A DNA stretch of 31,872 nucleotides from a virus (lineage: Duplodnaviria > Heunggongvirae > Uroviricota > Caudoviricetes): the IMG/VR virus record IMGVR_UViG_3300045988_180666; one strand, given 5' to 3'. Position 1 is the first letter of the stretch; each line of letters starts with the position of its first letter. The position numbers were made by a program, and so were the translations under genes. Positions 6,601 to 24,053 of the stretch are shown piece by piece. Under the pieces are notes generated by a model that worked only from the letters and a program-made list of their open reading frames with translations, had not been told where the DNA came from and did not search any database.

Positions 6601-7102
6601 CCCCGGCAGCGTTGGTCGTGGGGTTGTTGGCGAGTCGCCAGCCCTTGCCATCGAGGAAGCCCGAGACGAAGTCGGGAGAGCCTATGGTATCGTCAAAACG
6701 AGCAGCGCCCTTGACGTGCAGCGCACTGACTGTCGCCAAGCCCCACGCCAGGATCTCTTCGATGCAAAGCTTGTAACCCCCATTCTCTTTTGTGGCGAGG
6801 CAGAAGCCTTTTTGACCAGCCTCGGAGTAGTCATCAGTGGCGATGGAGTGGGCGATGATGTCGCCCTCTTTGGAGAAAGAAAAGAGGTTGCCTATCTTGA
6901 TGCCCTTGAGAAAGGTGATGAGCCCATGGGCTGTATCGTCGTTGATGGCGGAGAGTTTATCGTTGTCAGCAGAGGAAGCATAGTCGAGCAGGGACAGGAA
7001 GGCGTTGCCAATGCGGCTTGCCGTATTGGCGTGCTTGACTCTCTCGTCACGGATGCCCTCGAAAGCCTCTCTGATTTTGTTGATGTCTTTATTTTCTGCC
7101 AT
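3623..7102 (-). CDS. large tail fibre / tail spike-like structural protein
   Basis: 1159 aa, the longest ORF in the window, with ATG at 7102 and a -7 promoter box just upstream. The central coiled-coil region carries an internal duplication (TTADYNALMSERF... / VTADYNALTTKIEG...). The C-terminal part is beta-rich. Confidence 0.7.
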   Translation of the reverse strand: MAENKDINKIREAFEGIRDERVKHANTASRIGNAFLSLLDYASSADNDKLSAINDDTAHGLITFLKGIKIGNLFSFSKEGDIIAHSIATDDYSEAGQKGFCLATKENGGYKLCIEEILAWGLATVSALHVKGAARFDDTIGSPDFVSGFLDGKGWRLANNPTTNAAGVQENRYGLELDNLIVRGTMRIFEMIISQLLGENDNRIFTAMLEVDHYDPETGRVYLDTHEGRMYNPFRKDDYVMVQQYNGMPSTENNHYVTKRYELIVTEVGSEGSGEDMLAWVKFKNFTSSMEGATAEQLITKRDTFVRVDNLTDPDRKGIIQMMTVGSDTPYMDIIYGLKTDPDNALKGRLGNLRGITHPLFGALSGFGEFLQNLYATGDFVLRRTGESIDTKIQMLQNQFATRFAQTSYEATEENNYLHNGQFLTAIGYNDEQLIDGWTIDDTDESQFWVDANGLPVMVNGAATVSGNHRVSIDNNEGRNMLHIQDSGIKQANDLIRKPGTHKEYTQPSAEKGEDGMNTTGDDYTEVQDTLYISARIYAKTAGTLTFGFEGCKAVEGKTNDLSAQSVSVPYSAEWQTVELNGKWNGTGDFVLRYTGDIYVALLTITDEPLDNLSKTVSTQILQTAKNIKLLGQNIDKVNGTTTQLGIELDAEKEAIRLYVDKRYGELNTTLSSRIEIEAGRIDLINTWQDSTNEKISGIYTDIDSITARVESVTNTANGTKAALAELKITVNGINTTVGKAATKDELNAAKNTLQGTMSDNYNALNSSVAEARRHADSVGSDIRNDYGPTISLVSQNADSWSSAVARFDANGKLKDTSYLITTADYNALMSERFNADGTLKNKGGLLVTADYNALTTKIEGVDGKILSEATIKTMIANGISSATITADQINLNGVVTANSNFKINKDGSMEALAGKIAGFTIQGTGLTNDPFTNDAYIIFRNDTHKCFAGIGGNVLPASSGQRAVARFENEDSSDWWGLGYNIAAILSAKNGAYNFAFTGAGNGVLNGWIGGYKYSRYALSTKNTIYNGYAKISENNVWLIYSYVSSSGITLPTLSEVRSALGCGSSTNFAVTFTVVAEPGTTNFFIYGRNKIKDKSDSYAWNKEELPLILDENCGNKDYIEMGQGDSATFLLVYNSTMGNKVSDYTTKYTARKLNHAY

Positions 7103-8918: not shown

Positions 8919-9720
8919 AAGCTATATTGTGGCTAGCCTTGTAGGCGGTGGAATCTCTATATTTGGCGAAGTCATCGATGTTATCGTCTATGAGGGAGAG
9001 TAGGCTGAAGAAGAGTTTGTCTCTCGCCCTGAGGTCGATGGAATCGCCGTTTTTTGTGATATGGCACCCGATGAAATCGTAGATGCGCATGATGGCGACC
9101 CGATGGGAGGTGGTCGGGAACTGAGCCTTGCGCTCCTCTTCGAGCAACTGGTCTATCTGTGCATCGGAGAGCTCTCGGCGCAGGAAGGTCTCGGCTTGGT
9201 CTATCTCGCCCTTGTGCGCCACGAGGTCATCGAAGGTAAGCTTGCCGGGGATGCCGCAGAACTTGTTGAGGATGTATGGCGACCAAATGAAGGAGCGGAT
9301 GGTGTTGAAGGCTTGCAAGCTGTCAGCCCAGCCCTCGACCTGTCGCAATCGGTTGATGACGTTGTGCTGGGCGTAGTCTCGCCTGTAGGCAAGCTCGTGC
9401 TCCATGGCATCGACACGAGCCTGTGAGGCTGGGGCGATGTTGTCGTTGGAGACCACCCCGAAGCCGTTGTCGGTCATGATGATGTCGTGGGAGTGGAGAC
9501 TATCGAGGAAGGTGGCCAGTATGACATAGTCTCTGGCGTAGCGCTGCAGGGGCGAGTCTTCGGTCGAGACCGCTTGCTCGGCATCTGCGCCCACGACGGT
9601 GGCGATAAGATCGTCAAAATGGTTCTCGAAGGATGGCTGCATCTTGGTGAAGACATCCTCGGAGGCTGCCGCCACGAATGGCAGCAGCTGCTCGAACTGG
9701 TTTATATCAATCTGTATCAT
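8875..9720 (-). CDS. hypothetical phage protein (possible head-tail adaptor)
   Basis: The track ORF is 8875..9762. The internal ATG at 9720 (MIQIDINQFEQLLPF...) is preferred because it overlaps the upstream gene by 14 nt rather than 56 nt. The start remains uncertain. Confidence 0.5.
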   Translation of the reverse strand: MIQIDINQFEQLLPFVAAASEDVFTKMQPSFENHFDDLIATVVGADAEQAVSTEDSPLQRYARDYVILATFLDSLHSHDIIMTDNGFGVVSNDNIAPASQARVDAMEHELAYRRDYAQHNVINRLRQVEGWADSLQAFNTIRSFIWSPYILNKFCGIPGKLTFDDLVAHKGEIDQAETFLRRELSDAQIDQLLEEERKAQFPTTSHRVAIMRIYDFIGCHITKNGDSIDLRARDKLFFSLLSLIDDNIDDFAKYRDSTAYKASHNIAYENNADDTTFFFAG

Positions 9721-11113
9721 CTTGTTGCTTTGATTTTTGGTTGTTGGAAACTTGCTTGGCATCCTTGTTCTCGTCGAGGGTGGTGAGCATGATGAGCGGC
9801 ACGTCTGGATAGACCTTCTGCTCCCAGTGGTTGAAGTAGATGACCACCCAGTGAACGGTCTCCATGAGGTCGTGGAACGCCTTCTCTATCGACTGCTTGA
9901 GGGTGAAGAGCTCTCGCTTGTCTGAGCCAGAGTTGTTGGTTTGGCTCTTGCCCGGTGTGGCGCCCACGAGATTAGGGTGGATGTTGTCGGCATAACACTG
10001 CATGTTGTTGCTCTCGGCGATGTCGTCGCTGTAGTCACCGCCATCCTTTGAGGTGTCGATGCGCGTGATGCGCACCATCTTTACCTCTTTGCCATCAGGT
10101 GTGGTGTAATAGCCCGCTATCCAGAGCTTGCCGCTATTCTCGATGCCTGAGATGAAGGAGCGGATTTTTTCTTTCTCCTTCAGCTTGCGCTCCTTTTGCT
10201 TTGCCTTGTCGGTGATGTGCTCCTCTTGGAAGATGCCACGCCAATAGTCGTTGTGTATCTCTACGAGGTAAGGGATGGCAGCGTGGTTTTTGAGCTTTGC
10301 CATCTTGCCGATGGCGATGAGCCGGGAGATGTCGTACCACTTGTCTCGGAAGATGGCGCTGTAGTAGGGCACGGGGTAGTATTGACTGCCAGGAGTAGGG
10401 AAGCGAGTCACGATGGCGAAGACTCTGTCTTTGCACTTTGCTCCACCCGTCTGTCTGGTCAGGGTCTGTCCGCTTTGACCGTCGAGCCCCATGCGCTGCT
10501 GTAGGTCGCCCAGTGGGTCTAGCTCGTCGAGGAGTGGCAGCACCTCGATGTTGTCGGGTTTGACGGCATTGCGCCAGTTGGTATAGAGCACGTATTCGGA
10601 GCGACCGTTTTTGCTCTGGGTGAACCGACAGTAGCACGCCTCTTTGTGCCGGATGCCCACGATGCGATCGCCCTTTTTGTTGAGGATGATGGCTGAGACA
10701 CAAAAGAAGAAGTACTTCATGTCTGTGATTTGCTCGAGGAAGAAGCGCGAGAGGTTGTTGTGCATCTTGAAGAGGTTGACCTCTTTGTCTTGTGTCGGAA
10801 GCTTTGTCTTGATGTCGTTGTACTGGAAGCCCATGCCGTAGCAGGTGAGCACGTTGAAGAGCTTGTTTTGCGCCATCACGCTGCTCTCGCCGATGTTTTT
10901 GATGAGCTGGTAGGGCAGCTTGTTGTCTGCCCCGAAGGGGATGTAGGTGTATCTTTGCTTGTCCACCTCTACGGAGACGGTGGGTGTGGTACCATCATCA
11001 TCGAAGATGGATGAGGACTCGACGAAGCCGCTGGTGGGCGACGAGGTCTGGTAATCGAGCACCTCGCCCATGGTGGCGTATGTGATGTCTATGTTATTGC
11101 TTTTGTCTGCCAT
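9707..11113 (-). CDS. putative portal protein
   Basis: The track ORF extends to 11284, but its first 57 codons overlap 11119..11379 and look non-protein-like. The ATG at 11113 (MADKSNNIDITYATMGE...) gives 468 aa. Size, the polar/acidic C-terminal tail and the position ahead of adaptor/tail genes suggest a portal. No motif-level proof. Confidence 0.45.
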   Translation of the reverse strand: MADKSNNIDITYATMGEVLDYQTSSPTSGFVESSSIFDDDGTTPTVSVEVDKQRYTYIPFGADNKLPYQLIKNIGESSVMAQNKLFNVLTCYGMGFQYNDIKTKLPTQDKEVNLFKMHNNLSRFFLEQITDMKYFFFCVSAIILNKKGDRIVGIRHKEACYCRFTQSKNGRSEYVLYTNWRNAVKPDNIEVLPLLDELDPLGDLQQRMGLDGQSGQTLTRQTGGAKCKDRVFAIVTRFPTPGSQYYPVPYYSAIFRDKWYDISRLIAIGKMAKLKNHAAIPYLVEIHNDYWRGIFQEEHITDKAKQKERKLKEKEKIRSFISGIENSGKLWIAGYYTTPDGKEVKMVRITRIDTSKDGGDYSDDIAESNNMQCYADNIHPNLVGATPGKSQTNNSGSDKRELFTLKQSIEKAFHDLMETVHWVVIYFNHWEQKVYPDVPLIMLTTLDENKDAKQVSNNQKSKQQDDTD

Positions 11114-11118
11114 AATCT

Positions 11119-11379
11119 TTATAAGTATATTGAATGGTCGTTGTATCTGAAGATGAAAATGTCTCTCACCTTGCGTATCTGGTGGTTGACTGGGTTGTAG
11201 AGGGTGTGGGTGCCGTTTTGCCAGGATGAGGACTTGACGAGCCATCCCCTGTACTGGATGATGGAACCATCGCCGCCCTTCCAACAGTCGATGTCAACGG
11301 GCGAGCGGTCGATGCGCGAGATGTCGAGGGCACGGCGCAGCTCGTTGATGTGTATTGCCTTGGGTGTCTTGTCTGCCAT
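11119..11379 (-). CDS. hypothetical small phage protein
   Basis: 86 aa with ATG at 11379. 5-nt gap to the putative portal start. Confidence 0.5.
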   Translation of the reverse strand: MADKTPKAIHINELRRALDISRIDRSPVDIDCWKGGDGSIIQYRGWLVKSSSWQNGTHTLYNPVNHQIRKVRDIFIFRYNDHSIYL

Positions 11380-11396: not shown

Positions 11397-12458
11397 TTAG
11401 TTGAACGTATCGTCGAAGGAGTCGTCGAAGATGCGACCGCCCGTATTGTCGATGTTTTTGAACACGACATTCTGGACTCGCTGGGCATATTGGTAGCTGA
11501 AGGTGAACTCAGCCATGTCATCCAGCTCGTTGGTGCGCTCGCTCTTGGAGTCGGTGAAGGTAATCTCTTTGTCCTGTGTGTAGTCACGGAACAGATAGAT
11601 CTCATCGGAGCGCAGCAGGTCTTCGGCGAAGTGTGCCATGGACGGAGGAATAACACCTGTGTCGCCCTCGAAGGTGCGGGTCTCTTTGACGGAGTAGTTG
11701 ATCTTTTTGCCGCTGATGACGGCGCTCTTGCGCTCGAAGGTAGGTGCAATCTTCTTTTTGCCTAGGCAATAGAAGATCTCTTGGCACCCGAAGGAGTTGG
11801 TGAAGAGGAGCACCGGGTCGGCGACCGCCTCGGTATGGTCTATCTGGAAGTCTTGCACTCGCTTGCCCACGGTGACGGTGTAGGCGAAGAGGTCGCCACG
11901 GTCGGCATCGTAGTAACGGTCGGGCGAGACATCGAAGGTGGTGATGTTATTCACCGTATGGGTAGGGGTGGCATCGGCGGCGATATTGCCCTCCACGACC
12001 TTGCCGTCTTTGTAATATCGGGCTGTGACGGCGGCAGTGGTTCTGTCGGCACCTGCGGCATGGAGATATTCACGGTGTCCGAGCTGTGTGAGCTTGGCAC
12101 CATCGAGGAGGGTGAGGAAGTATTGGTCGAGGAACGACTGGCACGACATGTTGATGTCAACGGTGGCGTAGTAGGCGGTGAACTCGCACGACCAGTTGGC
12201 GACATCGCTCTCGCCATTGTGCTCGACAATCTTGATGGCGCACTTGGCGACCACGGTCGTGCGCACGGCATCGGAGATGAGCGTGCCGAGGTCGTAGATG
12301 GTGATGGTGCCAGCCACTGGGTAGTAAGTCTCGCTGAGCAGCTCTTCGCCCTCGCAGGTGATGGTAACGGTAGCGCGCTCGCCACCTATCTTGAAGGAGA
12401 AGGAGTCGAGCGCACTGGTGAACAATGGCGAAGATGGTTGGTTGGTAACTGTAATCAT
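11397..12458 (-). CDS. phage structural protein, function unknown
   Basis: 353 aa with ATG at 12458. First gene downstream of the -7 box at 12482-12489. Composition is beta-rich. Confidence 0.6.
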   Translation of the reverse strand: MITVTNQPSSPLFTSALDSFSFKIGGERATVTITCEGEELLSETYYPVAGTITIYDLGTLISDAVRTTVVAKCAIKIVEHNGESDVANWSCEFTAYYATVDINMSCQSFLDQYFLTLLDGAKLTQLGHREYLHAAGADRTTAAVTARYYKDGKVVEGNIAADATPTHTVNNITTFDVSPDRYYDADRGDLFAYTVTVGKRVQDFQIDHTEAVADPVLLFTNSFGCQEIFYCLGKKKIAPTFERKSAVISGKKINYSVKETRTFEGDTGVIPPSMAHFAEDLLRSDEIYLFRDYTQDKEITFTDSKSERTNELDDMAEFTFSYQYAQRVQNVVFKNIDNTGGRIFDDSFDDTFN

Positions 12459-13816: not shown

Positions 13817-13848
13817 GAAAAAGCCCCGGATGCTCACGCACCCGAGGC
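13817..13848 (-). terminator. intrinsic terminator of the AT-rich three-gene operon
   Basis: Minus-strand GCCUCGGG-UGCGUGAGCA-UCCGGGGC followed by UUUUUC, beginning 7 nt after the stop at 13855. Confidence 0.65.
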
Positions 13849-13854
13849 TGACAG

Positions 13855-14247
13855 TTATTTTTGGAAATAAACTTTTAAAGGGATTGAATTCTCCACATTG
13901 CCAATTTTGAAAGAGAACTGATAGTTGCCCTCTGCAGGGAACTGGAGGTCGGAGAACTCAAAGATGAAGTTGCTGAAGAGAAACTCATCTGAAGGGTGTG
14001 GCTCAATCTTGGAATTGATGGGCTGGCCAAGAATCATCTTGCCAGTGCTCATCTCTGTAACCTCTGCCGAGAACTCTTGCTGAAGTTTGCTTTCCTCGCT
14101 GTTCATCTTAACTCTCGCTACCATGAAGAGGTTGCTCTTAGGCAGCGGTGCTTTTCTTACCACATAGTGGTCAAAAGTGCCCACGATGGTAAGTTTGCCG
14201 TCATTATCTTGTGCAAAGTCACACAATGCAAGAATATCTATGTTCAT
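13855..14247 (-). CDS. hypothetical protein, third gene of AT-rich ORFan operon
   Basis: 130 aa (MNIDILALCDFAQDNDGKLTIVGTFDHYVV...), predicted all-beta by composition. ATG at 14247 overlaps the upstream stop by 4 nt. A terminator hairpin begins 7 nt after the stop. Confidence 0.65.
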   Translation of the reverse strand: MNIDILALCDFAQDNDGKLTIVGTFDHYVVRKAPLPKSNLFMVARVKMNSEESKLQQEFSAEVTEMSTGKMILGQPINSKIEPHPSDEFLFSNFIFEFSDLQFPAEGNYQFSFKIGNVENSIPLKVYFQK

Positions 14248-14684
14248 TTTATATGTCCTTTAATGTTAGACTCGATAGCCGAGTGTTTGAAAAGTTTTTT
14301 ATAATTGTCGAATGAATATTTGAGTTTGCTCACCGTGCGCTTGTTTGTGCTCACTAGGTTGGCTCCATGTCTGCCAGAGATGCCTTCCTTGGTATTGAAC
14401 TTCAGAGAATTTCTTTTGGAGTCAACCCAAAGCCTGATGGCATCGCCTTGTATCTTGTCACCCACATTGCCATGGACGTTGAGATCTTCTCGTATTTTCT
14501 TGTCCTCTTCGTTGAGCTCAAGAGCTTCGGTGATTTCTACGGAACTATTTCGGTCTAGTTCGTATAATGTCATCTTTTTGCCCGTGATAGGTTCCTCTTT
14601 GAGTCCCTTCCACTCAGCCCTTCTGGCAATGACATCAGCTTTTTTGCCCTCTATGATTTCACCTTCTTTGATATATATAGCCAT
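14244..14684 (-). CDS. hypothetical Lys-rich protein, second gene of AT-rich ORFan operon
   Basis: 146 aa. Its start overlaps the upstream stop in a TAATG arrangement (shared nt 14684). No motif recognised. Confidence 0.65.
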   Translation of the reverse strand: MAIYIKEGEIIEGKKADVIARRAEWKGLKEEPITGKKMTLYELDRNSSVEITEALELNEEDKKIREDLNVHGNVGDKIQGDAIRLWVDSKRNSLKFNTKEGISGRHGANLVSTNKRTVSKLKYSFDNYKKLFKHSAIESNIKGHIK

Positions 14685-15112
14685 TATTGGATACTTTTTT
14701 GCATTGATTTTTCACTGAAAGAGAATACCTCAGCCATATCATCAGGCGAGGTGATGCTCATGAGCGATGGGCTGACCTCAAGAGCCACCTCAATGTCTTC
14801 AATGGAAGCATCTTTATCTTGTTTGATGATGTACTTATCCTCATGCTCTTCAATCTCTTTATCAAACTCTTCTTCGGTAATATTGCCGTCAAGCATTTCG
14901 CAATATAGTTTGAAGTAGTTGCGCTCACGTGTGCGGTTGTTAACGGCACGAGTCATCAACTCCTTGAGTCTGTCGGCAGTACTGATGTTGAAAAAGTTAG
15001 CCTTATTGGTAACACCAGCGAATGCAACCTTGCCAGTACCTTTGTCTTGTATAGCCACAACAGGGCTGCCATCAGTTTGGTATGTTGTATATATAGTCGT
15101 TGTATTGCTCAT
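14684..15112 (-). CDS. hypothetical protein with acidic C-terminal half, first gene of AT-rich ORFan operon
   Basis: 142 aa with ATG at 15112, about 30 nt downstream of a full consensus promoter (15143-15174). Acidic stretch EEEFDKEIEEHEDKYIIKQDKDASIEDIEVALE. Confidence 0.65.
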   Translation of the reverse strand: MSNTTTIYTTYQTDGSPVVAIQDKGTGKVAFAGVTNKANFFNISTADRLKELMTRAVNNRTRERNYFKLYCEMLDGNITEEEFDKEIEEHEDKYIIKQDKDASIEDIEVALEVSPSLMSITSPDDMAEVFSFSEKSMQKSIQ

Positions 15113-15142: not shown

Positions 15143-15174
15143 CAAAGATACGGATATTTTTTGTAAATCGCAAA
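15143..15174 (-). promoter_or_regulatory. full consensus promoter of the AT-rich three-gene operon
   Basis: Plus-strand CAAAGATA at 15143-15150 and CAAA at 15171-15174, an exact 20-nt spacer. The ATG at 15112 follows. Confidence 0.65.
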
Positions 15175-15299
15175 TTTAATGATAAATTTAACAACAAAAA
15201 TTGCAATAAAGATTGGAAAATGGTATATAAAAAATGCTCGACCGCTTTTTGGCTCTTGCCAGACGCTTTCGCCGCAGGCGAAAATTTTTGGAAAATGAG

Positions 15300-15321
15300 G
15301 GGGAAGGTTTTAGCCTTCCCC
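15300..15321. terminator. GC-rich hairpin after radC (possible bidirectional terminator)
   Basis: GGGGAAGG-ttttag-CCTTCCCC, 20 nt after the radC stop. U-rich tracts follow on both strands but are not immediately adjacent. Confidence 0.5.
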
Positions 15322-15340
15322 TTACCTTATTATATATATA

Positions 15341-16024
15341 TTATAGCTTTCCTTTGTCGTGGTAGCTGTAGAAGCCATCCTCAGCCAAGATGATATGGTC
15401 CATCAAGAAAAGTCTCATCACCTCGCACGCCTTGGCTATCTTCTGCGTGAGCATATCGTCCGCCTTGCTCGGCTGCGTGCTGTTCGATGGGTGGTTGTGT
15501 GCCACGGCGATGATGGTTGCATTGTTGAGCACGGCTTCTTTCATTATCAGTCGAACGTCCACCGCTGTCTCGGTGATGCCTCCCTCGCTGAGCTTGGTGC
15601 ACTTTATCAGCCTAAAGTTTTGGTTCATCAGCACTACCCAAAAGCCCTCTGTCTCATTGCAGCCTATCATTGGGCGAAGATAGTTGTAGAGTGCCAGGCT
15701 GCTGCCTAGGTCGGTGTTTCTCGCTACCTTTTCCATTTGGTAGCGTCTGCCTAGCTCGATGGCTGCCTGTAGGGCTATCGCCTTGCAGTCTCCAATTCCT
15801 GGTACCACTTCCAGGTCTTCTATTCTCGCCTTGCCGATGTTGCGAAGCGAGTTGCCCATGATGTTATAAATCTGTCGTGCCTGCTCTTGGCTGTCCTTGG
15901 TACCTGCCCCTCTGTTGATTACCAAAGAAATCAAGTCAACGTTGGTAAGGGTGTCGAAACCTTGGTTATAGGCTCTGTACTGCGGTCTCTCCTCCATACA
16001 AAGATTGTTATAATTTTGTCTCAT
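15341..16024 (-). CDS. radC: RadC-family JAB/MPN domain protein
   Basis: 227 aa. The N-terminal part is HhH-like (LEVVPGIGDCKAIALQAAIELGRR). The C-terminal JAMM motif is intact: E in ETEGFWVVLMN, then AHNHPSNSTQPSKADDMLT (HxHx7SxxD). Confidence 0.85.
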   Translation of the reverse strand: MRQNYNNLCMEERPQYRAYNQGFDTLTNVDLISLVINRGAGTKDSQEQARQIYNIMGNSLRNIGKARIEDLEVVPGIGDCKAIALQAAIELGRRYQMEKVARNTDLGSSLALYNYLRPMIGCNETEGFWVVLMNQNFRLIKCTKLSEGGITETAVDVRLIMKEAVLNNATIIAVAHNHPSNSTQPSKADDMLTQKIAKACEVMRLFLMDHIILAEDGFYSYHDKGKL

Positions 16025-16039
16025 ATCTTTTGTTATTTG

Positions 16040-16564
16040 TTAGTTATACATTCTCTTTGTTCTCGCTAGGAACATCGCTCCCATCACTTGTGCGCCACAT
16101 TCGGCTAGCTCGTTGGCGAACTCTCGGGCGGTCGCTCCGCTCGTCACCACGTCGTCGAAGATGATGACTTTCTTTCCGCTGAAGTACTCTCTATCGAGTG
16201 CCACTCTGTAGTCGAAGCTCTCACACACTCTGTCTGTGCTGAAGTGCTTGGCTGTGCGCTCTCCATAGATGGAAATGTGCTCGTTTCCGTTCTGTACCTT
16301 TGCGCCTTGGCTCACCTTTTGGGCGAAGCGAGAAAAGCGCTTGGTGTACTTCTTTGAGTTGGCTGCTGGAGCGCAAACCATCACGAAGTCGCTGGCTTTG
16401 TCGCCATAGGTGTTGACGAAAGAGCTGACCACCATATCGGCAGCTGCGTCTGTCGCCCACTGCTTTCCATCCTTGAAGGCAAAGATGAAGTTTCTCACTT
16501 GCTCTGCTTGTGCTGAGCGGTCGAAACGCTTGGAGCTGTACTCGTAATAATTGAAAGTTTTCAT
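16040..16564 (-). CDS. ComF-like phosphoribosyltransferase (PRTase) domain protein
   Basis: 174 aa. Canonical PRPP-binding loop KKVIIFDDVVTSGATAREFANELAECGA. The upstream segment VCAPAANSKKYTKRFSRFAQKVS resembles the ComF-type R.F.Q region. No N-terminal Cys4 zinc finger is present. Only 15 nt separate it from radC. Confidence 0.8.
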   Translation of the reverse strand: MKTFNYYEYSSKRFDRSAQAEQVRNFIFAFKDGKQWATDAAADMVVSSFVNTYGDKASDFVMVCAPAANSKKYTKRFSRFAQKVSQGAKVQNGNEHISIYGERTAKHFSTDRVCESFDYRVALDREYFSGKKVIIFDDVVTSGATAREFANELAECGAQVMGAMFLARTKRMYN

Positions 16565-16745
16565 ACGCTTAAAATTTTTATTCTAGCCAGAGGGAGGAAG
16601 GAGCTTTTTTATTTGAACTCGTCTTTGCCTGCCCGTCTGAGAGTTTTTTTTATTCTGTCCGTCGGTCGTTTTTGTCGCTTTTTACGGTGCGATGCAGACG
16701 AGCGGAGAAGAGGTATGAAAGCCAAGGAATTTTGCAAAAAGTTTA

Positions 16746-17299
16746 TGGAAAACCGTCATCTCTGATTGCGGAAGGCTGCCGAAAAGTTTTTGGAAAATAG
16801 ATTTATCGGTACTTGGTGCATGCCGTCCGCCGTACCTTTGCACCCGAAAAAGAGATAATGACCGATGGATAACCGATAAAGGGAAAAGCTCTCGGACAGG
16901 AAAAGCGGGCAAAGAAAAGGCTCTGCCTTACCTTGGTGGTTAAGCCTTAGCGACGTTTGAGCGCCATCACGGTCACCACCGCTTGAAAATTCGCAAATTT
17001 TAACCCTAGCGTATGAAATGAAAGATGGAAAATTTGCGTCATCAAAAACACCATGTTTTTCAGACTTCAGGAGGAAAAACATACCTTGGAGCGATGAAAT
17101 CGCAGCATTTGGCATGCTTCGACCCCGAGGTTGAAGATGCCGAATGTGTCGTTTTGCGACAGGTTTTCCACACCCACGGATTGGAAAACCCCGATTTTAT
17201 CGTGGTTTTAGGGATTCAAAGGGAAAATAATTCCCCTTTGTCGGCGATAGCACCCCCCACCGCCCTACGCCCGAGCGCGCCTTCCGCCCCCTTGGAAAA
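16746..17299 (+). repeat. cluster of nine same-strand GGAAAA motifs (five as TGGAAAA) plus one inverted copy
   Basis: GGAAAA hexamers start at 16747, 16792, 16882, 16899, 17027, 17073, 17183, 17222 and 17294, with the inverted copy at 17164-17170. A further TGGAAAA lies at 15289-15295. Confidence 0.55.
16833..16840 (+). promoter_or_regulatory. plus-strand -7 box TACCTTTG inside the ORF-poor segment
   Basis: GTACCTTTGCAC (16832-16843) is identical to the 12-mer at 25902-25913. No good -33 box. Confidence 0.35.
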
Positions 17300-17359
17300 G
17301 ACGGAATATGTAAAAGACCGTTAACGTTTTTGTAGGAATGTAAAAAGCCAAAAGGCACG

Positions 17360-17392
17360 AAAAAAGGGAACACGCTTCGCAGCGCACTCCCC
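17360..17392 (-). terminator. intrinsic terminator after terL
   Basis: Minus-strand GGGAGUGCGC-UGCGAA-GCGUGUUCCC (10 bp including three G-U pairs, hence strand-specific) followed by U6. Confidence 0.7.
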
Positions 17393-17462
17393 TTATCGGC
17401 GGTCAAGCAAGAATGCCAGCCACCTAACTTATATAAGAATCGTACTATCTAAAGAAATCAAA

Positions 17463-19064
17463 CTATAGCATGGAACCCGTGGCGATGTAGCCATCAGCCT
17501 GAGGGTATTTCTCCATGCCAATCATGAGCGTGTCGTAGGCATCGGAGCCATCGGTGCGAGCCTCCAACTTATCCTCCTCGGTCTCAGCCAGCTTCTCGCC
17601 TCGCTTATCCTTCTTGCCGTTGTAGACCCCGGCCAGGCGGATGGAGATGAGCAGGTCTTCGTTGTTCTCGCTGTTGATCATCGAGCGATGCTCAGCCTTG
17701 CCGAGGAACATGCGGTTGAGCAGAAGCATCTTTTCGAGATGTCCCATCGGGTTGCCCAGATAGACCTCGTTGACATACCAGCCATGGTCGGTGAGGTAGT
17801 CGGTGATGAAGGTATGGAAGTCATCGTTCATCAGGGCGTAGTTGTTGCCCACGAAGGTGGAGTCGTAGTAGAAGTTGACCTCTTTGCACCGATGGTACTC
17901 ATAGTACTGCATGAACTTGTCGAGCAGGGCTGGCAGCTTCTCCTCATACTTCACGAAGATGCTCTTGAGGCAGCGTGCCTCGCCCCGCAGGTTGTCTTGT
18001 CCGACGGCTATCCAGTTGATGAGGGCGTTGGCATCGAAGGCGATGCAGAGCGGACGGTCGGGGTCAACGTCGGCATCCATTCTGGAATCTACATGCTTGA
18101 GCTTGTCGATGTCGTAGCCCAAGCCATCGAGGTAGGCGAGGTTGGGCGCCGTGTATAGGTTGGCATCCCTGAGGTTGGAGTAGAAGCCATCGAGCGAGAT
18201 GGAAGGTCGCTTGCACATGATGGAGGTCTGGAAGGTGAGGGCAGGGAGGTCTCGCTTCATCTGCTTGATGAACTCCATGCCGAGCACCTCGATGTTATAG
18301 ACCGATGAGTACTCTTTATAGAAGAGTGCCTTGGAGCGCAGTTGCGCCAGGAGCTGACCAATCTCTCGGAGTCGGCGCTGGGCATAGCCTGAGACATGGC
18401 CCGAGGTCTTGATGCGGTTGCGTATGTCATACTCCTCTACCACGAGCGAGGCGATGGCGTCGATGAGCAGCTGGTCGCAGTCTTTCTTGTAGTTGAGGAA
18501 CCAGGAGCCCTTCTTGGTCACGGGCATATCAGAGGTGATGAGCATGCCATGGTGGTAGTAGTGCTGGCCGAAGAGGTTGACGTTGCCTCGATTGGCAGGG
18601 AAGGTCTCGTCTTTGAGCTGTTCGAAGTTGATGAACTTCGCCTCGTCGATGTCGAGGTAGTCGAGCGAGAGGGAGTTGGAGGTACCCTTGCGGTCTTGCG
18701 AGATGATGGTACCGATGGAGCCGTTATAGAAAGAGATGGTGTTCTCCCAGTTGCTGGGCGGTATGACCGGGTCGGGCCATCCCAGTTTTTTGGGAGGCTT
18801 GACCCCGATGAGATAATGCTTGCCCCGGTGGAAGCCCCATCGCTCCCAGTGCTGAAGCATCGACGGTATGGTGTTGGTGAGGCATCGCTTGGTGTTGGCG
18901 GATACGAAGCCGCCGTTGCTGCCAGGCATGCGCTGCATGTTGCGCAGGTTGAAGGTGGCGTGGAGAATGCTCTTGCCGATGCCTCGACCGCCCACGACCA
19001 CGTTGTCGCGGGCGGAGATGAGGTTGACCTCCATCTGGGCTGGGTTGAGATATTGATCTATCAT
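17463..19064 (-). CDS. terL: terminase large subunit
   Basis: 533 aa. Walker A is VVGGRGIGKS and Walker B-like is LSLDYLDIDEA, followed by a C-terminal nuclease-sized domain. The start overlaps the upstream gene in an ATGA arrangement. Confidence 0.85.
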   Translation of the reverse strand: MIDQYLNPAQMEVNLISARDNVVVGGRGIGKSILHATFNLRNMQRMPGSNGGFVSANTKRCLTNTIPSMLQHWERWGFHRGKHYLIGVKPPKKLGWPDPVIPPSNWENTISFYNGSIGTIISQDRKGTSNSLSLDYLDIDEAKFINFEQLKDETFPANRGNVNLFGQHYYHHGMLITSDMPVTKKGSWFLNYKKDCDQLLIDAIASLVVEEYDIRNRIKTSGHVSGYAQRRLREIGQLLAQLRSKALFYKEYSSVYNIEVLGMEFIKQMKRDLPALTFQTSIMCKRPSISLDGFYSNLRDANLYTAPNLAYLDGLGYDIDKLKHVDSRMDADVDPDRPLCIAFDANALINWIAVGQDNLRGEARCLKSIFVKYEEKLPALLDKFMQYYEYHRCKEVNFYYDSTFVGNNYALMNDDFHTFITDYLTDHGWYVNEVYLGNPMGHLEKMLLLNRMFLGKAEHRSMINSENNEDLLISIRLAGVYNGKKDKRGEKLAETEEDKLEARTDGSDAYDTLMIGMEKYPQADGYIATGSML

Positions 19065-19690
19065 AGTGCTTTGTCCTCCTTGACTTCTTCTGTAGGTGTA
19101 TATTCCAAGAGCTGTTCGTCGTAGTCCTCGGCCTCGATCTTGACGAGATCCATGGAGTTGTCGGTGTATTTCTTGACGAGCTTCTTGATGGTCTGCATCA
19201 CGTTAGGGATGCGCTTGAGACCCAAGTGTCGTGGGTCGGTGGTAGGGATGAAGACCTGAGGCTGAATCTGGTCGTAGCCGTTGTCGGTAGGATCCTCTTT
19301 GTCGAGCAGGTGATATTTGCCGTATGCAGCTGCGGCGGCAGCCATGGCTCGGGCATCGCCCATGGAGTCGGCCTTGTCGTAGGTGCGCTGTATCATCTGG
19401 TCGAAGCGATAGCGGGCGAAGTCTTTTGACACTTTTTGCAGGTTGCCCAATATGAGCTTGATGAGGTGCAGGTCGTTGTAAGCCATCATGCGCTGCACCT
19501 TGTAGTCGTGCATATCTTTATAGACCAGCTCTTGGTCGCTCTTGCGAGGGTTGATGAGCCACCAGGCATAGAGGGCACGGATGCGCAAAATGCGGTCGCG
19601 CACTGGGGCGGGCACATTTTGCGCATCCATCTCTTCGGGTGTGCGGTCCATCAGTTCGATGATGGCATCGATGTTGGCGGGTTCTCTCAT
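19061..19690 (-). CDS. possible terminase small subunit / packaging protein
   Basis: 209 aa, helical, translationally coupled (4-nt overlap) to terL on one side and to the HTH ORF on the other. The call rests on position only. Confidence 0.4.
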   Translation of the reverse strand: MREPANIDAIIELMDRTPEEMDAQNVPAPVRDRILRIRALYAWWLINPRKSDQELVYKDMHDYKVQRMMAYNDLHLIKLILGNLQKVSKDFARYRFDQMIQRTYDKADSMGDARAMAAAAAAYGKYHLLDKEDPTDNGYDQIQPQVFIPTTDPRHLGLKRIPNVMQTIKKLVKKYTDNSMDLVKIEAEDYDEQLLEYTPTEEVKEDKAL

Positions 19691-19968
19691 ATTCTAATCT
19701 CCTCTAACATTTGGTTCAGATATTCGTGTGTGCGCTGCACCGCCTGTGGCGAGCCAGCCGCAGCCAGGTCTAGCTTGTTTTTGCGTATCTGCTGGCGCAC
19801 CGTCGCCATGCCCAAGTAATAGACACGGTGAAGCTCGGAGTCGGGCTTCAGTATCTCGTCACGCAGATCGTCCTCGCTAATATCCAAAAGGACGGACATC
19901 TCGGATATCGGAGTCAACGTCTCCGCGAAGTCTTGCACTTTTTTGAGTAATTCCTGAGAAATTTCCAT
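19687..19968 (-). CDS. small HTH-like DNA-binding protein (TerS N-terminal-domain-like)
   Basis: 93 aa. The segment ISEMSVLLDISEDDLRDEILKPDSELHRVYYLGMATVRQQ resembles the HTH/recognition layout of small-terminase N-termini. ATG at 19968 lies 92 nt inside the upstream ORF. Confidence 0.4.
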   Translation of the reverse strand: MEISQELLKKVQDFAETLTPISEMSVLLDISEDDLRDEILKPDSELHRVYYLGMATVRQQIRKNKLDLAAAGSPQAVQRTHEYLNQMLEEIRI

Positions 19969-20452
19969 TGATTCTTAAGCTTTGAGTGTCACAATGAAGG
20001 GTATATCCGCCGAAGAGGTCGGCGAAGACCTGCGGGTCGGTGGTGATGATGGTTGACTCGTCACGGCTGCCGTAGGTCTGGTTTTGCGAGGTGACGACCG
20101 ACACGACGTGCTGGTCGTTGCGGAAGAGTGTCACCTTGGAGTGGTTTTGCCCCAGGAACACATCGTTGAAGCAGGTCTGCATCATGCGCCACAGCTGCAC
20201 GGTCTTTTTGCTCGCCTTGACATCGAGCAGCATCGTTGCCGACAGGATGCTGCCCGACTGGCGCATCAGGCGGAAGCCTCGCAGGAACTCCTCGGAGGTG
20301 GAGTAGGAAGACACCCACACATCTGCAGGGCCTATCTGGGAGAGAATCCACTTGATGAGACCGAGGGTGTGGAGGTGCCGCCCGAAGTAGGCTTGCGTCT
20401 GGGCATCGGCGATAGGACGGAGCAGGTCACTGACCTTGACCTTGGTCGGCAT
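19877..20452 (-). CDS. PLD/HKD-superfamily (Nuc-like) protein
   Basis: 191 aa. The single HKD-type motif GQNHSKVTLFRNDQHVVSVVTSQNQT fits the Nuc-like pattern (H.K...D......GS.N.T). The preceding VWVSSYSTSEEFLRGFRLMRQSG...LLDVK matches the first half of the fold. Confidence 0.55.
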   Translation of the reverse strand: MPTKVKVSDLLRPIADAQTQAYFGRHLHTLGLIKWILSQIGPADVWVSSYSTSEEFLRGFRLMRQSGSILSATMLLDVKASKKTVQLWRMMQTCFNDVFLGQNHSKVTLFRNDQHVVSVVTSQNQTYGSRDESTIITTDPQVFADLFGGYTLHCDTQSLRINGNFSGITQKSARLRGDVDSDIRDVRPFGY

Positions 20453-21170
20453 TGGCGGCTAGCTTAGCCTTGGCTACACGGTCACGGTCGGCATTGGTAA
20501 CCTGGTATGAGTCGTAGGTGAGCATGTCGGCACGATAGCGCTTGTCGAGGTCGGAGAGTATCTTGAGAAGCTCGTATCGGTCGCATGGCTCAAGGCGCTC
20601 CATCGTCTTGAGCGTCTCGAAGGTCGATTTAATCTGCTTGTATCGCTTGGCGTTGGCATCCCAGAGAGCGGCAACCTCGGCAGGAAGGAACTCATGGTCG
20701 CTGCGCTTGCCCTTGCGGATGACCGCCACGCCATCGCTCTCGGAGGAAGGCAGCTCGGCATCATCGGTCGAGCCATCATCGTCGATGGAATCGGCATTTT
20801 TTGCGATTTCATTGCCATTTTCGTCGGTTTCATCGGTCTTTTTGGTCGTTTTCTCGGTCGTATCGGTCGTTTCTTCGGTCGTTGCCACAGGTACGCCCTC
20901 ACTGATGATGGCTTGCGCCTCTGGTATGACGATGGCATCCATCTGCTTGACCTCTTCGATGGTCATGCCATCGAGACGAATCTTCAGGAACTTATTCAGC
21001 TCATACTCGATGTTGGTGCGATAAACCTGTGGCTGTCGGGTGGCACGGAAATGGTAGAAGCGATTGCGGTTGAGACGGAAGAGCATGTCTGCGCCCTTGA
21101 TGATGTCAGCGTCGCTCTCGTGCTTGGCATTGAGCCACGCCTGTATCTGTTTGGTGAATTGATGATCCAT
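20427..21170 (-). CDS. hypothetical phage protein with acidic T/D/E-rich linker
   Basis: The track ORF starts at 21302 and overlaps the upstream gene and a terminator. The ATG at 21170 (MDHQFTKQIQAWLNAK...) gives 247 aa, starting just downstream of the terminator at 21190-21230. Confidence 0.55.
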   Translation of the reverse strand: MDHQFTKQIQAWLNAKHESDADIIKGADMLFRLNRNRFYHFRATRQPQVYRTNIEYELNKFLKIRLDGMTIEEVKQMDAIVIPEAQAIISEGVPVATTEETTDTTEKTTKKTDETDENGNEIAKNADSIDDDGSTDDAELPSSESDGVAVIRKGKRSDHEFLPAEVAALWDANAKRYKQIKSTFETLKTMERLEPCDRYELLKILSDLDKRYRADMLTYDSYQVTNADRDRVAKAKLAANADQGQGQ

Positions 21171-21189
21171 ATATAAGAATGTTTTTGAT

Positions 21190-21230
21190 GAAAAGAACAA
21201 AGGTGGCTCAGGCACGAAGCGAGAGCCACC
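21190..21230 (-). terminator. intrinsic terminator after the capsid/198-aa gene pair
   Basis: Minus-strand GGUGGCUC-13 nt loop-GAGCCACC followed by UUUGUUCUUUUC. Confidence 0.65.
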
Positions 21231-21286
21231 TAAGCTTTGAAGTTTAAACCGTATGTAGTTATGCAAAAATTTGGGCAAATGAACGT

Positions 21287-21883
21287 TTATGCCGCCTCCC
21301 ATACAGAGCCATCGGAACCCTTGATGTCTCCGGACTCAGTCTCGATCTTGCCAGGATAGAACGGTGTAGGGCAGAAGTCTGTCGCCTCGGTGTTGACGGT
21401 CGTGGTGCAAGCATCGGTCACGCCGCTGCCTGATGCCTGGCTGACGGTAATCTTAGGTGCGAATGCCTCGCAGCCGATGAGACGGGCACGACCCTTGCGG
21501 TCTTGCACCATCATGATGAGCTCGTCGTTGATAGCCATGGTAGCGAAGCCACTGATGTCCTCGTCGGTACCACCCACCACGAACTCGCCTTTGTTGAGGA
21601 ACGTAGCGGAAGGTGCCTCGCCCTGAGTCTCTGCAGTAAAATTGCTCTTGGCATCTACGAGGTCGAGACTGTGCCACTTGGCATCGCTCGCCAAGGTGAA
21701 GTCGCCTGTATATTGAGCCAGCTTAGCTGGGTCTGTGGTCTCGTCAGTTGCCGCTGGCAATGTTGGCCAAGTCAGAATCTGACTCTTCAAGATGAAGAAA
21801 ACACGAGGGCGAACGCCTGGGGCTATGCGAGCCCCAGGACATTTCTTAACTGATTTATATAAATCTTTTGTATTACAAGCCAT
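21287..21883 (-). CDS. phage structural protein (head decoration or similar abundant virion protein)
   Basis: 198 aa, immediately after the putative capsid gene and followed by a strong terminator, the layout expected of a highly expressed head gene pair. No motif recognised. Confidence 0.5.
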   Translation of the reverse strand: MACNTKDLYKSVKKCPGARIAPGVRPRVFFILKSQILTWPTLPAATDETTDPAKLAQYTGDFTLASDAKWHSLDLVDAKSNFTAETQGEAPSATFLNKGEFVVGGTDEDISGFATMAINDELIMMVQDRKGRARLIGCEAFAPKITVSQASGSGVTDACTTTVNTEATDFCPTPFYPGKIETESGDIKGSDGSVWEAA

Positions 21884-21916
21884 AATTTTATCTCCTATAT
21901 ATAATAAGGTGAAACT

Positions 21917-23026
21917 TTACTCCTTGCCCTCAGCTCCGGTATCGTCTGCAGAAGAATTCTTCTGCTCTGCATCGCTAGCTGTGTTGCTGCTTGCAGGATC
22001 AGCACCTGAACCCTTTGTGATGAGCGATGTGGTACCATCGTTTGTGATGAACAGGGCTCGTTCTTTATTGATGCTCTCGTACTGGCAACCTAAGAACTTG
22101 GTGGCGATGAAGTCGAGCTTCCAAGGGTGGTACTTTTCTACGCTGATCTTCTCCTCGTCGCTGTTGTTTGCCTCGTTGACACCCACGAGCATATTGTTGC
22201 GAGTGGTGAGCTGGAAGAACGGAGCGTTCTTCTTGTTGATGAGTGGTACCATCTCAACGTTGTCGAAACCCTCGACGGTGTTGTGGTTGTAACCGGTATT
22301 GTATGGCACATTGCCAAACTTATTGAGGTAGTTGCGGTTGTAGAGATTGATGAACGCCTGTGGAACGTAGAGATAAAGCTTCTCTTCGCCAATCAGTTCT
22401 TCGTCAGCCTCCTCGCAAATGGCCTGTGCGAAGTCAACGGCGTTATCGCTGCTGATATTCTTACCACTGCCCAAAATATCTGAAACTTTGATGAGGTTGC
22501 CGAGGTCTCGAGACAGCTTGCCATTAGTCAACTCAGTCTTGGCGATGGTATCGAAACCATTGAAGAGGTCTTTTGAGCCTTTGCCCTCGTCGTTGCGCAC
22601 GGCATCGAAGAGGTGGAGGTTGAGGTTCTTGCCCAGCTTGAGCGCCAAGAGCTGCAGCACCTGAAGGGTGATTGGCACGTTCTTAAGCGCTTCGCCATTC
22701 ATGGCGTTGGCCCCCCAAATGGTGGAATAAACTGAGTTCGGGGAGAACTTGATGTCAACGTTGCCGAGGAACACCTGCAAAGTGCGAGGTGTAATCTTTA
22801 CGCCACCATCGCCCACGCGGTTCTCGTCGTATGGACCAAACTCTGCGTTGCCGAGCAACTCGCCCACGGTCTCTGAAACTCTGATGCCCGGGCGCAGGGT
22901 CATGTACTTGAGTGACTGAGCCAAGCCTTTGGTAGGCATCGTAATCAACTTCGAACGGTAAGTTTTCGCAGTGTTCTGCAGCTGTACATCGACATCTACA
23001 GGCACAATGAATTTATTATCTGCCAT
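21917..23026 (-). CDS. putative major capsid protein
   Basis: The ATG at 23026 (MADNKFIVPVDVDV...) lies 1 nt after the protease/scaffold stop and gives 369 aa. Position and size are typical of a capsid protein. It has a long polar C-terminal tail. Confidence 0.65.
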   Translation of the reverse strand: MADNKFIVPVDVDVQLQNTAKTYRSKLITMPTKGLAQSLKYMTLRPGIRVSETVGELLGNAEFGPYDENRVGDGGVKITPRTLQVFLGNVDIKFSPNSVYSTIWGANAMNGEALKNVPITLQVLQLLALKLGKNLNLHLFDAVRNDEGKGSKDLFNGFDTIAKTELTNGKLSRDLGNLIKVSDILGSGKNISSDNAVDFAQAICEEADEELIGEEKLYLYVPQAFINLYNRNYLNKFGNVPYNTGYNHNTVEGFDNVEMVPLINKKNAPFFQLTTRNNMLVGVNEANNSDEEKISVEKYHPWKLDFIATKFLGCQYESINKERALFITNDGTTSLITKGSGADPASSNTASDAEQKNSSADDTGAEGKE

Positions 23027-23027
23027 A

Positions 23028-24053
23028 TTATGCAAACTGATTTAAAACATCCAACACTTGATCTGAGCAGAAATCCTCGACCTTGGTGTCATCGACAGCA
23101 GTGTGCGTGTCGCCACCAGGCTCTCCCTCCAGATCCTTCACTTTATCCTTCAGGTCATCTCTCTCCTTTTCGAGATTCTTGACCTTAGTCTCTAACTCCT
23201 TCTTCTCGTCCTTGACCTTCTGAAGCTCTGTGTCTTTGTCGGTCACGGCCTTGGAGTCGGCAGCGATCTTATCCTCCAGTTTCTGCATCTGCTCCTGTGA
23301 GATTGTGCAGTTCTTTGCGGAATCTTCTGCCTCAATGCCCTCGATATTGAGGACATTGTTGATGTGAGTCCATTTTTTGATCATATTAATAATTTTATTT
23401 TGTGATTTATCTTTGCCGAATAATCGGTCGATGATGCTTGGCTTTTTATCATACCAGGAGTTAACAACCTCTGGGAGAACAGGAAGGTTGTTGTACTTGA
23501 TGAAGTCTTGCGTCTGCTCGGTGATGTCGGCAGGCTTGCCATCCATGGCTTCATCGACGAGACCCAGTTCGATGCACTCATCGACGGTGTGCCACATCGC
23601 TTCGGACATCACCTTGACGATGTCCTCGTGCTTCTTGCCCGAGCGATCGCAGTAAACGTTGGCGATGATGTTGTCGATTTTCTGCTGGTTCTCTTGCTGT
23701 TTTTGAAGTTGCTCGATGAGCGAGCCTATCTGCTCCTCGTTGAGCGCAGACCACACAAACTGCTCGGTAGAGCACTTGTGTACCAGGAGCAAGCTATATT
23801 TGCTCATGCGAATCTTGCTGGCACCCATCGCACAGATGGTGGCAGCAGAGGCAGAGAAGCCCGCCTGGAAGTCAACGGTCACGTCGCCATGGGACTTGAA
23901 CATCTGACAGATGGCGAGACCTGCGGAGACCTCGCCACCCAAGGAGTCGATGGCAACATCGACGTGCTTATCTTTGTTGGCCTTAAGAACATCGCGAACC
24001 ATGAGCTTGGTCCACGAGCCAATATATCCTGTGATAGAAATTTGGTACTTCAT
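23028..24053 (-). CDS. ClpP-like prohead serine protease fused to coiled-coil scaffold domain
   Basis: 341 aa. The N-terminal half has ClpP/S14-like motifs (DSLGGEVSAGLAI; Ser region QAGFSASAATICAMGA; His region LLLVHKCS). The C-terminal part is a K/E/D coiled coil (KVKDEKKELETKVKNLEKERDDLKDKVKDLEGE). Confidence 0.8.
   Translation of the reverse strand: MKYQISITGYIGSWTKLMVRDVLKANKDKHVDVAIDSLGGEVSAGLAICQMFKSHGDVTVDFQAGFSASAATICAMGASKIRMSKYSLLLVHKCSTEQFVWSALNEEQIGSLIEQLQKQQENQQKIDNIIANVYCDRSGKKHEDIVKVMSEAMWHTVDECIELGLVDEAMDGKPADITEQTQDFIKYNNLPVLPEVVNSWYDKKPSIIDRLFGKDKSQNKIINMIKKWTHINNVLNIEGIEAEDSAKNCTISQEQMQKLEDKIAADSKAVTDKDTELQKVKDEKKELETKVKNLEKERDDLKDKVKDLEGEPGGDTHTAVDDTKVEDFCSDQVLDVLNQFA

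Follow-up and report, generated by a model that had tools for sequence, protein, structure and literature searches.

A candidate ShosTA-like phosphoribosyltransferase–RadC gene pair carried by a temperate phage of Segatella copri

We examined a 31,872-nt stretch of DNA from a virus of the Caudoviricetes (IMG/VR record IMGVR_UViG_3300045988_180666), referred to below as the window, and followed up one pair of genes within it. Positions 15341-16564 hold exactly two minus-strand open reading frames (ORFs), a phosphoribosyltransferase (PRTase) gene followed after 15 nt by a gene of the RadC family (Table 1), and the short spacer is consistent with a single operon. Among relatives, the distance from the PRTase stop codon to the start of the partner gene ranges from −7 to +29 nt. 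The pair follows the large terminase gene, terL, and is closed by a GC-rich, terminator-like element. Its first hairpin, read on the minus strand from 15321 to 15300, has an 8-bp stem with six GC pairs (arms GGGGAAGG/CCTTCCCC, tail CTCATTTTCC) and is flagged by the scan on both strands; the RNA fold of 15255-15345 reaches −26 kcal/mol (z = −2.9). The terL call comes from a weak PHROG match (phrog_2, E = 1e-4) and is backed by conservation among relatives. A preliminary description of this DNA had proposed the same layout, namely a PRTase core with an intact loop for phosphoribosyl pyrophosphate (PRPP) and no ComF zinc finger, a RadC protein with a helix-hairpin-helix (HhH)-like N-terminus and an intact JAMM motif, a closing hairpin and a neighboring terL, and the results below bear it out. 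The pair forms an accessory cassette that recurs across divergent phages, and elsewhere the same PRTase family is joined to other partners.

Table 1. Positions of the gene pair, its cassette and the adjoining features in the window.
Feature	Position	Strand	Description
PRTase gene	16040..16564	minus	174 aa; core-only type I phosphoribosyltransferase of the ComF/ShosT/PsyrT-like clade; contains KKVIIFDDVVTSGATA; PRPP loop VIIFDDVVTSGAT
RadC gene	15341..16024	minus	227 aa; N-terminal UPF0758_N/HhH-like domain and RadC-type JAB domain; contains AHNHPSNSTQPSKAD
Intergenic spacer	16025..16039	minus	15 nt, from PRTase to RadC
Terminator-like element closing the pair	15267..15323	minus	Hairpin at 15300-15321, then a second hairpin at 15267-15283
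Whole mobile cassette	15216..16983	minus	About 1.77 kb; indel relative to sibling phages without the cassette
Conserved leader	16565..16714	minus	Candidate degenerate -7 box TACCTCTT (16707-16714, inferred), conserved blocks, A8 run, hairpin and CAGAATAAA-type box before the ATG
A8 run of the leader	16644-16651	minus	Invariant; A8-10 across lineages
Long imperfect hairpin of the leader	16588-16639	minus	A-rich loop; stem sequence varies by lineage
Terminator-like hairpin 3' of terL	16908..16927	minus	Would part terL from the cassette
terL (large terminase)	17463..19064	minus	Context gene; conserved neighbor of nearly all PRTase-RadC pairs

The PRTase passes the Pfam PF00156 cutoff narrowly (29.7 bits against 26.3), and its AlphaFold2 model is a single PRTase core that opens with a beta strand at residues 2-9. 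Neither an N-terminal Cys cluster nor the four-cysteine zinc finger is present in its translation, and it does not reach the ComF family cutoffs (NCBIfam comF TIGR00201, 31.5 bits vs. 233.55; GntX, 23.4 vs. 304). Among PADLOC models, it matched ShosT (PDLC03962; E = 1.6e-9, 36 bits, residues 9-171) and PsyrT (9e-9, at model positions 554-685 of 689 only). An effector of a type III-A retron was considered and rejected, with no reverse transcriptase among the neighboring genes (terL and small ORFs), no Rfam match and a PADLOC PRTase_III-A match of only 2.4e-4. The modeled structure is predicted to have a ComFC-like PRTase fold, with ComFC as its nearest structural neighbor and PyrR, APRT and OPRT also among the neighbors. 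Searches of PDB sequences with the single PRTase and with the family profile A1 returned generic PRPP-loop matches only, and thus sequence alone cannot place this protein.

A generic type I PRTase fold with an intact PRPP loop, and with PyrR, APRT and OPRT nearby in structure space, might also suit a nucleotide-salvage or DNA-base-modification pathway, in which the PRTase would make nucleotides for phage DNA synthesis from a free base, perhaps a modified one, and RadC would trim an intermediate. We consider this very unlikely. Scores against curated salvage-enzyme families fall far under their cutoffs, there is no recognizable hood or base-binding domain, and the pair is unaccompanied by other biosynthetic or modification genes. 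Moreover, the PRTase family is confined to mobile elements and fused to non-metabolic domains, and near-identical phages differ in whether they have the cassette.

An exhaustive search with the family profile collected 4408 representative proteins, 334 of them at E ≤ 1e-30, in which the PRTase domain is often C-terminal in proteins of 400-1200 aa that also match PADLOC ShosT. The window PRTase belongs to a ComFC-related clade of mobile-element effector PRTases and is neither a housekeeping ComFC nor a canonical ShosT. Several family members (P0132, P0171, P0179, P0198, P0253, P0217, P0236 and P0243) fuse the PRTase domain to uncharacterized N- or C-terminal regions, and the fused regions in the family include Sel1/TPR repeats, ankyrin-like repeats, a repeated C-terminal module and membrane anchors. 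This variety points to a large unexplored family of PRTase effectors. Other members (P0050 and P0126; plasmids NZ_OY725765.1 and NZ_OY725888.1) carry the NCBI name ‘ribonucleotide-diphosphate reductase subunit alpha’, apparently a mis-annotation that has spread between records.

RadC is a DNA-binding JAB hydrolase that has long, and controversially, been tied to recA-dependent repair. To our knowledge, it is near-universal in bacteria and common on mobile elements, and it has gone without an accepted function for decades. Judged from its domain matches, the protein encoded in the window is a full-length member of the family (PF04002, E = 1.2e-35; N-terminal PF20582, UPF0758_N, E = 7e-12). It scores above the TIGR00608 cutoff (152.9 bits against 133.85) and slightly under that of the PRK00024 equivalog (175.5 against 180), matches PDB entry 2qlc at 1e-14, and has a weak helix-hairpin-helix-type comEA match over residues 38-85. 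PADLOC did not match it to ShosA and gave only a weak JAB match (0.0057). Its motif E...HxHx7Sx2D is complete, with HNHPSNSTQPSKAD intact, and the JAMM residues E126, H176, H178, S186 and D189 are invariant among PRTase-linked RadCs at about 30% identity (alignment A3). On the PRTase side, alignments retain D137, D138, T141 and G143 of the invariant PRPP loop, together with P66 and R76. Measured against close relatives, dN/dS was low for the PRTase (0.11-0.17) and for RadC (0.09-0.19), compared with 0.02-0.08 for terL. Such purifying selection, with catalytic residues kept in both proteins, indicates that both are maintained as active enzymes.

The two genes are rarely apart in viruses. RadC lay directly downstream in 35 of 37 viral loci seeded with the PRTase, and the PRTase lay upstream in 69 of 80 viral loci seeded with RadC, the remaining 11 holding mostly the most divergent RadCs. 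Adjacency persisted at PRTase identities down to about 30%, and in a neighbor-joining tree the RadC-linked PRTases formed several (at least five) deep lineages at about 30-52% identity. The phages concerned are Bacteroidales phages, and terL is nearly always the neighbor of the pair. We also surveyed genomes by a profile-guided scan of one genome per species, which gave 80 loci, almost all from Bacteroidales, and classed the next gene with local hidden Markov models (HMMs). In this set the PRTase was followed by a YpsA/SLOG gene at 60 loci, by RadC at 13, by RadC and then SLOG at two (L059 and L060) and by neither at five. The SLOG partners were confirmed as PF06908 (YpsA SLOG) and gave weak PADLOC ShosA matches (3e-5 to 3e-3); their PRTases are 30-38% identical to that of the window and match PADLOC ShosT at 2e-13 and 7e-14. 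Thus, one PRTase family is found with exchanged partners.

The two kinds of pair occupy different surroundings. A terL homologue, 24-100% identical to that of the window, adjoins 12 of the 13 genome loci with RadC as sole partner; the thirteenth, the 2.8-kb contig L090, joins L059 and L060 as the RadC-type loci without an adjoining terL. In the genome survey, no SLOG-type locus had a terL homologue next door. SLOG-type pairs were found instead on plasmids, integrative and conjugative elements (ICEs) or conjugative transposons (CTns), in one arrangement as SSB-PRTase-YpsA-ParA-RecD2-like helicase, and, on the pMMCAT plasmids that are widespread in Bacteroides, with LPD28, an orphan N6-methylase, MazEF and HipBA around them. 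Every RadC-type locus was phage- or element-borne, so chance adjacency or a ubiquitous chromosomal comF-radC arrangement, the latter named in the preliminary description among the outcomes that would undo its reading, was ruled out. As to the same description's concern that the PRTase might cluster with housekeeping ComFC, the protein falls in the mobile-element effector clade; its score is below the comF cutoff, and ComFC is nearest in structure.

A few loci depart from both arrangements. The PRTase adjoins an XRE helix-turn-helix protein in L102, a GNAT protein in L045 and an integrase in L089 and L091. In L099 (3780-5594), an Anaerobiospirillum metagenome-assembled genome (MAG), the PRTase of this family (217 aa) has a DprA-like protein of 353 aa immediately upstream; by its sequence we take the latter for a ShosA-like partner in reversed order, outside the Bacteroidota. 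The PRTase-RadC-SLOG trios of L059 (Bacteroides gallinaceum) and L060 (Ca. Bacteroides avicola), at about 4947-6772, may stand between the RadC-type and SLOG-type modules in evolution. The L059 trio sits in a non-phage island and adjoins a gene for a HipA-like kinase.

These trios mirror ComFC, RadC and DprA, which are co-regulated in competence regulons (PMC12826799). Together with the constant terL adjacency, they favor a DNA-handling module drawn from the competence toolkit, whose ComFC-like protein would bind single-stranded DNA (ssDNA) for processing by RadC, with or without a DprA-like SLOG protein, and whose use to the phage would lie in recombination, replication restart or a packaging-linked step. 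We find this quite unlikely: the PRTase has no zinc finger and falls far under the comF cutoff, sibling phages dispense with the pair, and the strictly kept catalytic residues of the PRPP loop favor enzymology over binding alone. RadC, as far as Attaiech 2008 is relayed in PMC5512222, has no demonstrated role in transformation.

The carrier of the pair, a temperate phage or prophage of Segatella copri, is abundant. A Segatella copri MAG (locus L046) has a 100% identical PRTase. This match and the 6317 assembly blocks on record with the identical protein, contigs of 113 kb, 258 kb and 3.5 Mb among them, uphold the earlier ‘prophage’ label. The same gene order recurs on IMG/VR phage contigs of about 40-45 kb, and TAnnTTTG, the -7 promoter motif of Bacteroidetes, is found 37 times where 12 would be expected.

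Within this phage group, the pair behaves as a discrete insertion with clean boundaries. In two sibling phages (L137 and L156), homology to the window stops at 16984 and restarts at 15215, with 35 bp between; a third (L133) keeps only the last ~100 nt of RadC and the terminator (window 15234-15436), which we read as a deletion scar. GC content is 0.46-0.48 in the cassette, compared with 0.51-0.58 in its flanks, and terminator-like hairpins bound it, one after terL and one after RadC. When 72 related phage loci were collected with terL as seed, 46 had the pair, 24 had neither gene, two had RadC only and none had the PRTase only; RadC-only loci also occur in the RadC-seeded scan. At the 24 loci with neither gene, terL is nonetheless 91-96% identical. 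The slot after terL is hypervariable, and some of its occupants carry DUF2335 or DUF5053. In sibling phages (L135, 7234-8110; also L146, L153 and L155), its occupants are a SocA/Panacea-domain antitoxin (PF13274, 7e-18) and then a 123-aa protein, by sequence a PanA-type toxin-antitoxin (TA) pair. A Panacea-like 185-aa protein and a 166-aa protein, so called by sequence resemblance only, stand straight after RadC in L048 (6449-7515).

Within the close clade, PRTase and RadC distances are better correlated with each other (r = 0.87) than either is with terL distances (0.57 for the PRTase, 0.46 for RadC), and therefore the pair moves as a unit. In one recombinant, the PRTase allele and the RadC allele come from different sources, as could happen if the partner acts without allele-specific binding.

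Taken as a whole, we tentatively read the pair as a ShosTA-like module of effector and neutralizer, TA- or abortive-infection-like and of type IV style, with RadC in the DprA/SLOG role; we put this reading a little short of even. It draws support from the cassette and hotspot behavior, the TA-type neighbors in the slot and the lack of PRTase-only loci in the terL-seeded set. With flanking terminator-like hairpins and a conserved leader of its own, the cassette is built as morons are. It would be an autonomous accessory module of a temperate Segatella copri phage, from a family in which a ComF/ShosT-like PRTase is coupled to a nucleic-acid- or nucleotide-processing partner. Through its intact DD loop, the PRTase would draw on PRPP and transfer or consume phosphoribosyl groups, which would disturb nucleotide and DNA metabolism and harm the cell if left unchecked. 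RadC, as a DNA-binding (HhH) JAB metallo-hydrolase, would act downstream on DNA or on a nucleotide product and prevent or reverse the damage, taking the place of the DprA-like ShosA or of YpsA/SLOG as a type-IV-like, non-sequestering neutralizer. Infection or loss of the element would then tip the balance so that the effector wins, with abortive infection, superinfection exclusion or addiction as the outcome, to the gain of the lysogen or prophage. A functional analogy between RadC and ShosA, which acts via DNA and RecA rather than by sequestration, is plausible. The comparisons show homology, conserved catalytic sites and adjacency, exchange of partners, and a locus that behaves as a cassette in a hotspot; PRTase toxicity, a neutralizing role of RadC and the biological outcome are what we infer.

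RadC could alternatively be the enzymatic ‘eraser’ of a PRPP-dependent modification, the PRTase phosphoribosylating a base in DNA, RNA or the nucleotide pool in the manner of the DarTG writer-eraser pair. LOG-type SLOG enzymes cleave N-ribosyl-5'-phosphate bonds and offer an analogy for the removal of such an adduct by RadC. We rate this specific chemistry as rather unlikely. If true, it would give the RadC family its first biochemical function and bear on ComFC, DprA and RadC in natural competence.

Several observations weigh against the ShosTA-like reading. The first concerns position. In the deep lineages, PRTase, RadC and terL co-diverge (r = 0.87-0.94), and the place beside terL is kept even at 24-28% terL identity, which is steadier than typical defense cargo; this long-term positional stability weakens the case. 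So does the polyvalent-protein and leading-region flavor of both the PRTase and RadC domains (PMC5512222), and the pMMCAT PRTase-SLOG pair lies near LPD28 and the orphan methylase. The second concerns the effector, which is a 174-aa core without the N-terminal PPase-like domain of ShosT and is predicted to be structurally closest to ComFC rather than ShosT; its PDB profile match to ShosT (E = 0.0095) is confined to ~38 residues of the PRPP loop. The third concerns the partner, a RadC JAB enzyme (PF04002) and not a DprA-like ShosA. An unrelated 102-aa protein accompanies the PRTase in L036 and L037, and no PRTase-RadC fusion was present among 269 retrieved proteins, which did include one PRTase-SLOG fragment. 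Finally, in an uncultured Bacteroides MAG (L057, 5523-6356), RadC diverges after HNHPSG, loses the Ser and Asp of the JAMM motif and runs to 277 aa beside an intact PRTase; as the locus is from a MAG, this could be a real loss or an assembly frameshift.

The steady position beside terL across very divergent phages, with co-divergence, also fits the main rival, a counter-defense or establishment module serving the phage; the preliminary description had offered a counter-defense pair as its alternative. The PRTase would make, consume or sense a nucleotide or PRPP-derived molecule, and RadC would process a nucleic acid or nucleotide signal, blunting host immunity or conditioning the cell at DNA entry or replication; any toxicity would be a side effect. 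PRTase-SLOG pairs adjoin SSB and ParA, or LPD28 and the orphan N6-methylase on pMMCAT. Nucleotide production or sensing at DNA entry has been proposed for polyvalent PRTase and RadC domains (PMC5512222), and viral YpsA-like SLOGs are predicted to degrade immune signals (PMC9503650). We nonetheless place this explanation on the unlikely side, although the DNA-handling and salvage or modification roles are less likely still. A late, structural region between terminator-like hairpins is an unusual site for an early anti-defense gene, a third of close relatives dispense with the cassette, and the slot also holds a TA-type pair. Of characterized proteins, those nearest to the PRTase are ShosT and PsyrT, both defense-system toxins, and the PRTase is a solo protein without MuF or another packaging domain.

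The PRTase is preceded by a conserved leader (Table 1). Some 120-135 nt before its ATG can be aligned at the nucleotide (blastn) level between lineages whose PRTases share 35-52% amino acid identity, and the leader also precedes the PRTase in L034, L035, L036, L040, L048, L057 and L186. Similar elements of an A run and a hairpin were seen by eye before several SLOG-type PRTases. Read on the plus strand, the leader hairpin followed by a T run resembles an intrinsic terminator. The minus strand of 16565-17460 has no exact Bacteroidetes -7 box (TAnnTTTG), only the degenerate candidate. Rfam gave no relevant match, either over the whole window at gathering thresholds or over 16500-17000 at E ≤ 10, and a tRNA scan was likewise negative; the scans thus gave neither a retron-like RNA nor a known riboswitch. 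The RNA structure of the leader, drawn by visual inspection, is partly supported: RNAalifold on MAFFT alignments returned zero consensus pairs, and a single-hairpin scan gave mixed z-scores. The leader may be a 5'-untranslated-region regulator, an antisense terminator, or both. On the writer-eraser reading, rated rather unlikely above, the structured element could in addition be a new cis-regulatory RNA that senses a metabolite of the pathway.

Between terL and the cassette, the spacer at 16984-17462 (minus strand) is partly GC-rich (about 17180-17300), and a doubtful 119-aa ORF at 16756-17115 straddles the cassette boundary. A terL-to-PRTase spacer of 500-900 bp is kept in every related phage. 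On the other side of the pair lies a second, independent cassette (13855-15112, minus strand) of three small proteins (142, 146 and 130 aa, the last a DUF6941 protein), with TAnnTTTG boxes of its own (15143-15150 and 15171-15178) and a strong terminator (13822-13849); its presence or absence in related phages is independent of the PRTase-RadC pair. Gene order over 17463-24053 is unusual, with a ClpP-like head maturation protease (23028-24053) and its neighbors upstream of terS/terL. Further conserved late genes lie downstream of terL (353 aa at 11397-12458; 525 aa at 9707-11284), and most virion genes of the window have no PHROG or Pfam match.

In deeply diverged lineages, RadC stays tied to a PRTase of the effector type and stands exactly where ShosTA, PsyrTA and PRTase-YpsA modules have their DprA-like or SLOG neutralizers, and the pairing makes the long-unexplained function of RadC directly testable. 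Prophages of Segatella (Prevotella) copri make the cassette very common in the human gut. Should it serve in defense, addiction or counter-defense, it probably influences how phages and hosts interact in a major gut taxon. The ShosTA-like reading, if true, would extend the ShosTA concept to the Bacteroidota, where few systems are characterized, and add to the catalogues of defense and anti-defense systems a candidate that current PADLOC models would miss.

Among known systems, ShosTA is one of the closest to the pair. The 424-aa ShosT of E. coli has a PPase-like domain (residues 1-164), a PRTase domain and a long flexible loop; to be toxic, it depends on the DD motif and on binding of PRPP, and the DprA-like ShosA binds ssDNA and RecA and neutralizes ShosT without binding it (PMC11961720, PMC12961424). 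The window pair likewise has a PRTase effector with a PRPP-binding DD loop (D137-D138, T141 and G143) that is matched by the PADLOC ShosT model, and the effector gene comes first with a nucleic-acid-related partner second. Sister modules of the window PRTase, moreover, have DprA-fold (SLOG) partners with weak ShosA similarity. Apart from the differences in domains and partner given above, the window pair is set in a Bacteroidales prophage beside terL. It is not a member of canonical ShosTA. The preliminary description's proposal of a ShosTA-like pair with a different partner thus stands as to architecture, through the ShosT and PsyrT matches, the SLOG/DprA sister modules and the cassette hotspot, but not as to membership of the canonical system. 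The PADLOC search that it had suggested for both proteins linked the PRTase, but not RadC, to the ShosTA models.

PRTase-YpsA (SLOG) pairs are also among the closest systems. Comparative genomics by Burroughs et al. in 2015 reportedly noted them, and Brzozowski et al. 2019 (PMC6459960) describe the conserved gene pair in work that leaves RadC unmentioned. The PRTases of these pairs and of the window pair are of one family (30-38% identity, a single HMM and a single tree), and the pairs agree in gene order and tight spacing. In contrast to them, the window has RadC and no SLOG gene, and the phage setting beside terL replaces a plasmid, ICE or CTn. With PsyrTA/RqlHI, the window pair shares effector-then-partner logic and a PRTase that matches the C-terminal 130 residues of PADLOC PsyrT, but its PRTase lacks the RecQ-like helicase domain and the fold of RadC differs from that of the DprA/SLOG-like antitoxin. 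ComFC differs in its 4-Cys zinc finger and in a TIGR00201 score that the window PRTase falls far below; the window pair is also mobile-element borne, without comFA or a competence context.

PRTase and RadC have been described as domains of polyvalent proteins in phages and conjugative elements by Iyer et al. 2017 (PMC5512222), who assign mobile-element PRTases to a ComFC-related group with a conserved Arg and predict that the RadC JAB domain processes nucleic acids or nucleotides. The window proteins share this combination of a mobile-element, ComFC-related PRTase with a RadC JAB domain, but they are solo proteins in one operon, and PRTase and RadC are not presented as a coupled pair in that study. 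It was the sole paper in our literature search to name both, as separate polyvalent-protein domains; the PRTase-RadC pair itself was undescribed in the literature searched, in line with the earlier remark that it was not known as a named system. The pairing is best placed as a partner-swapped variant, newly described here, of known ShosTA-like modules.

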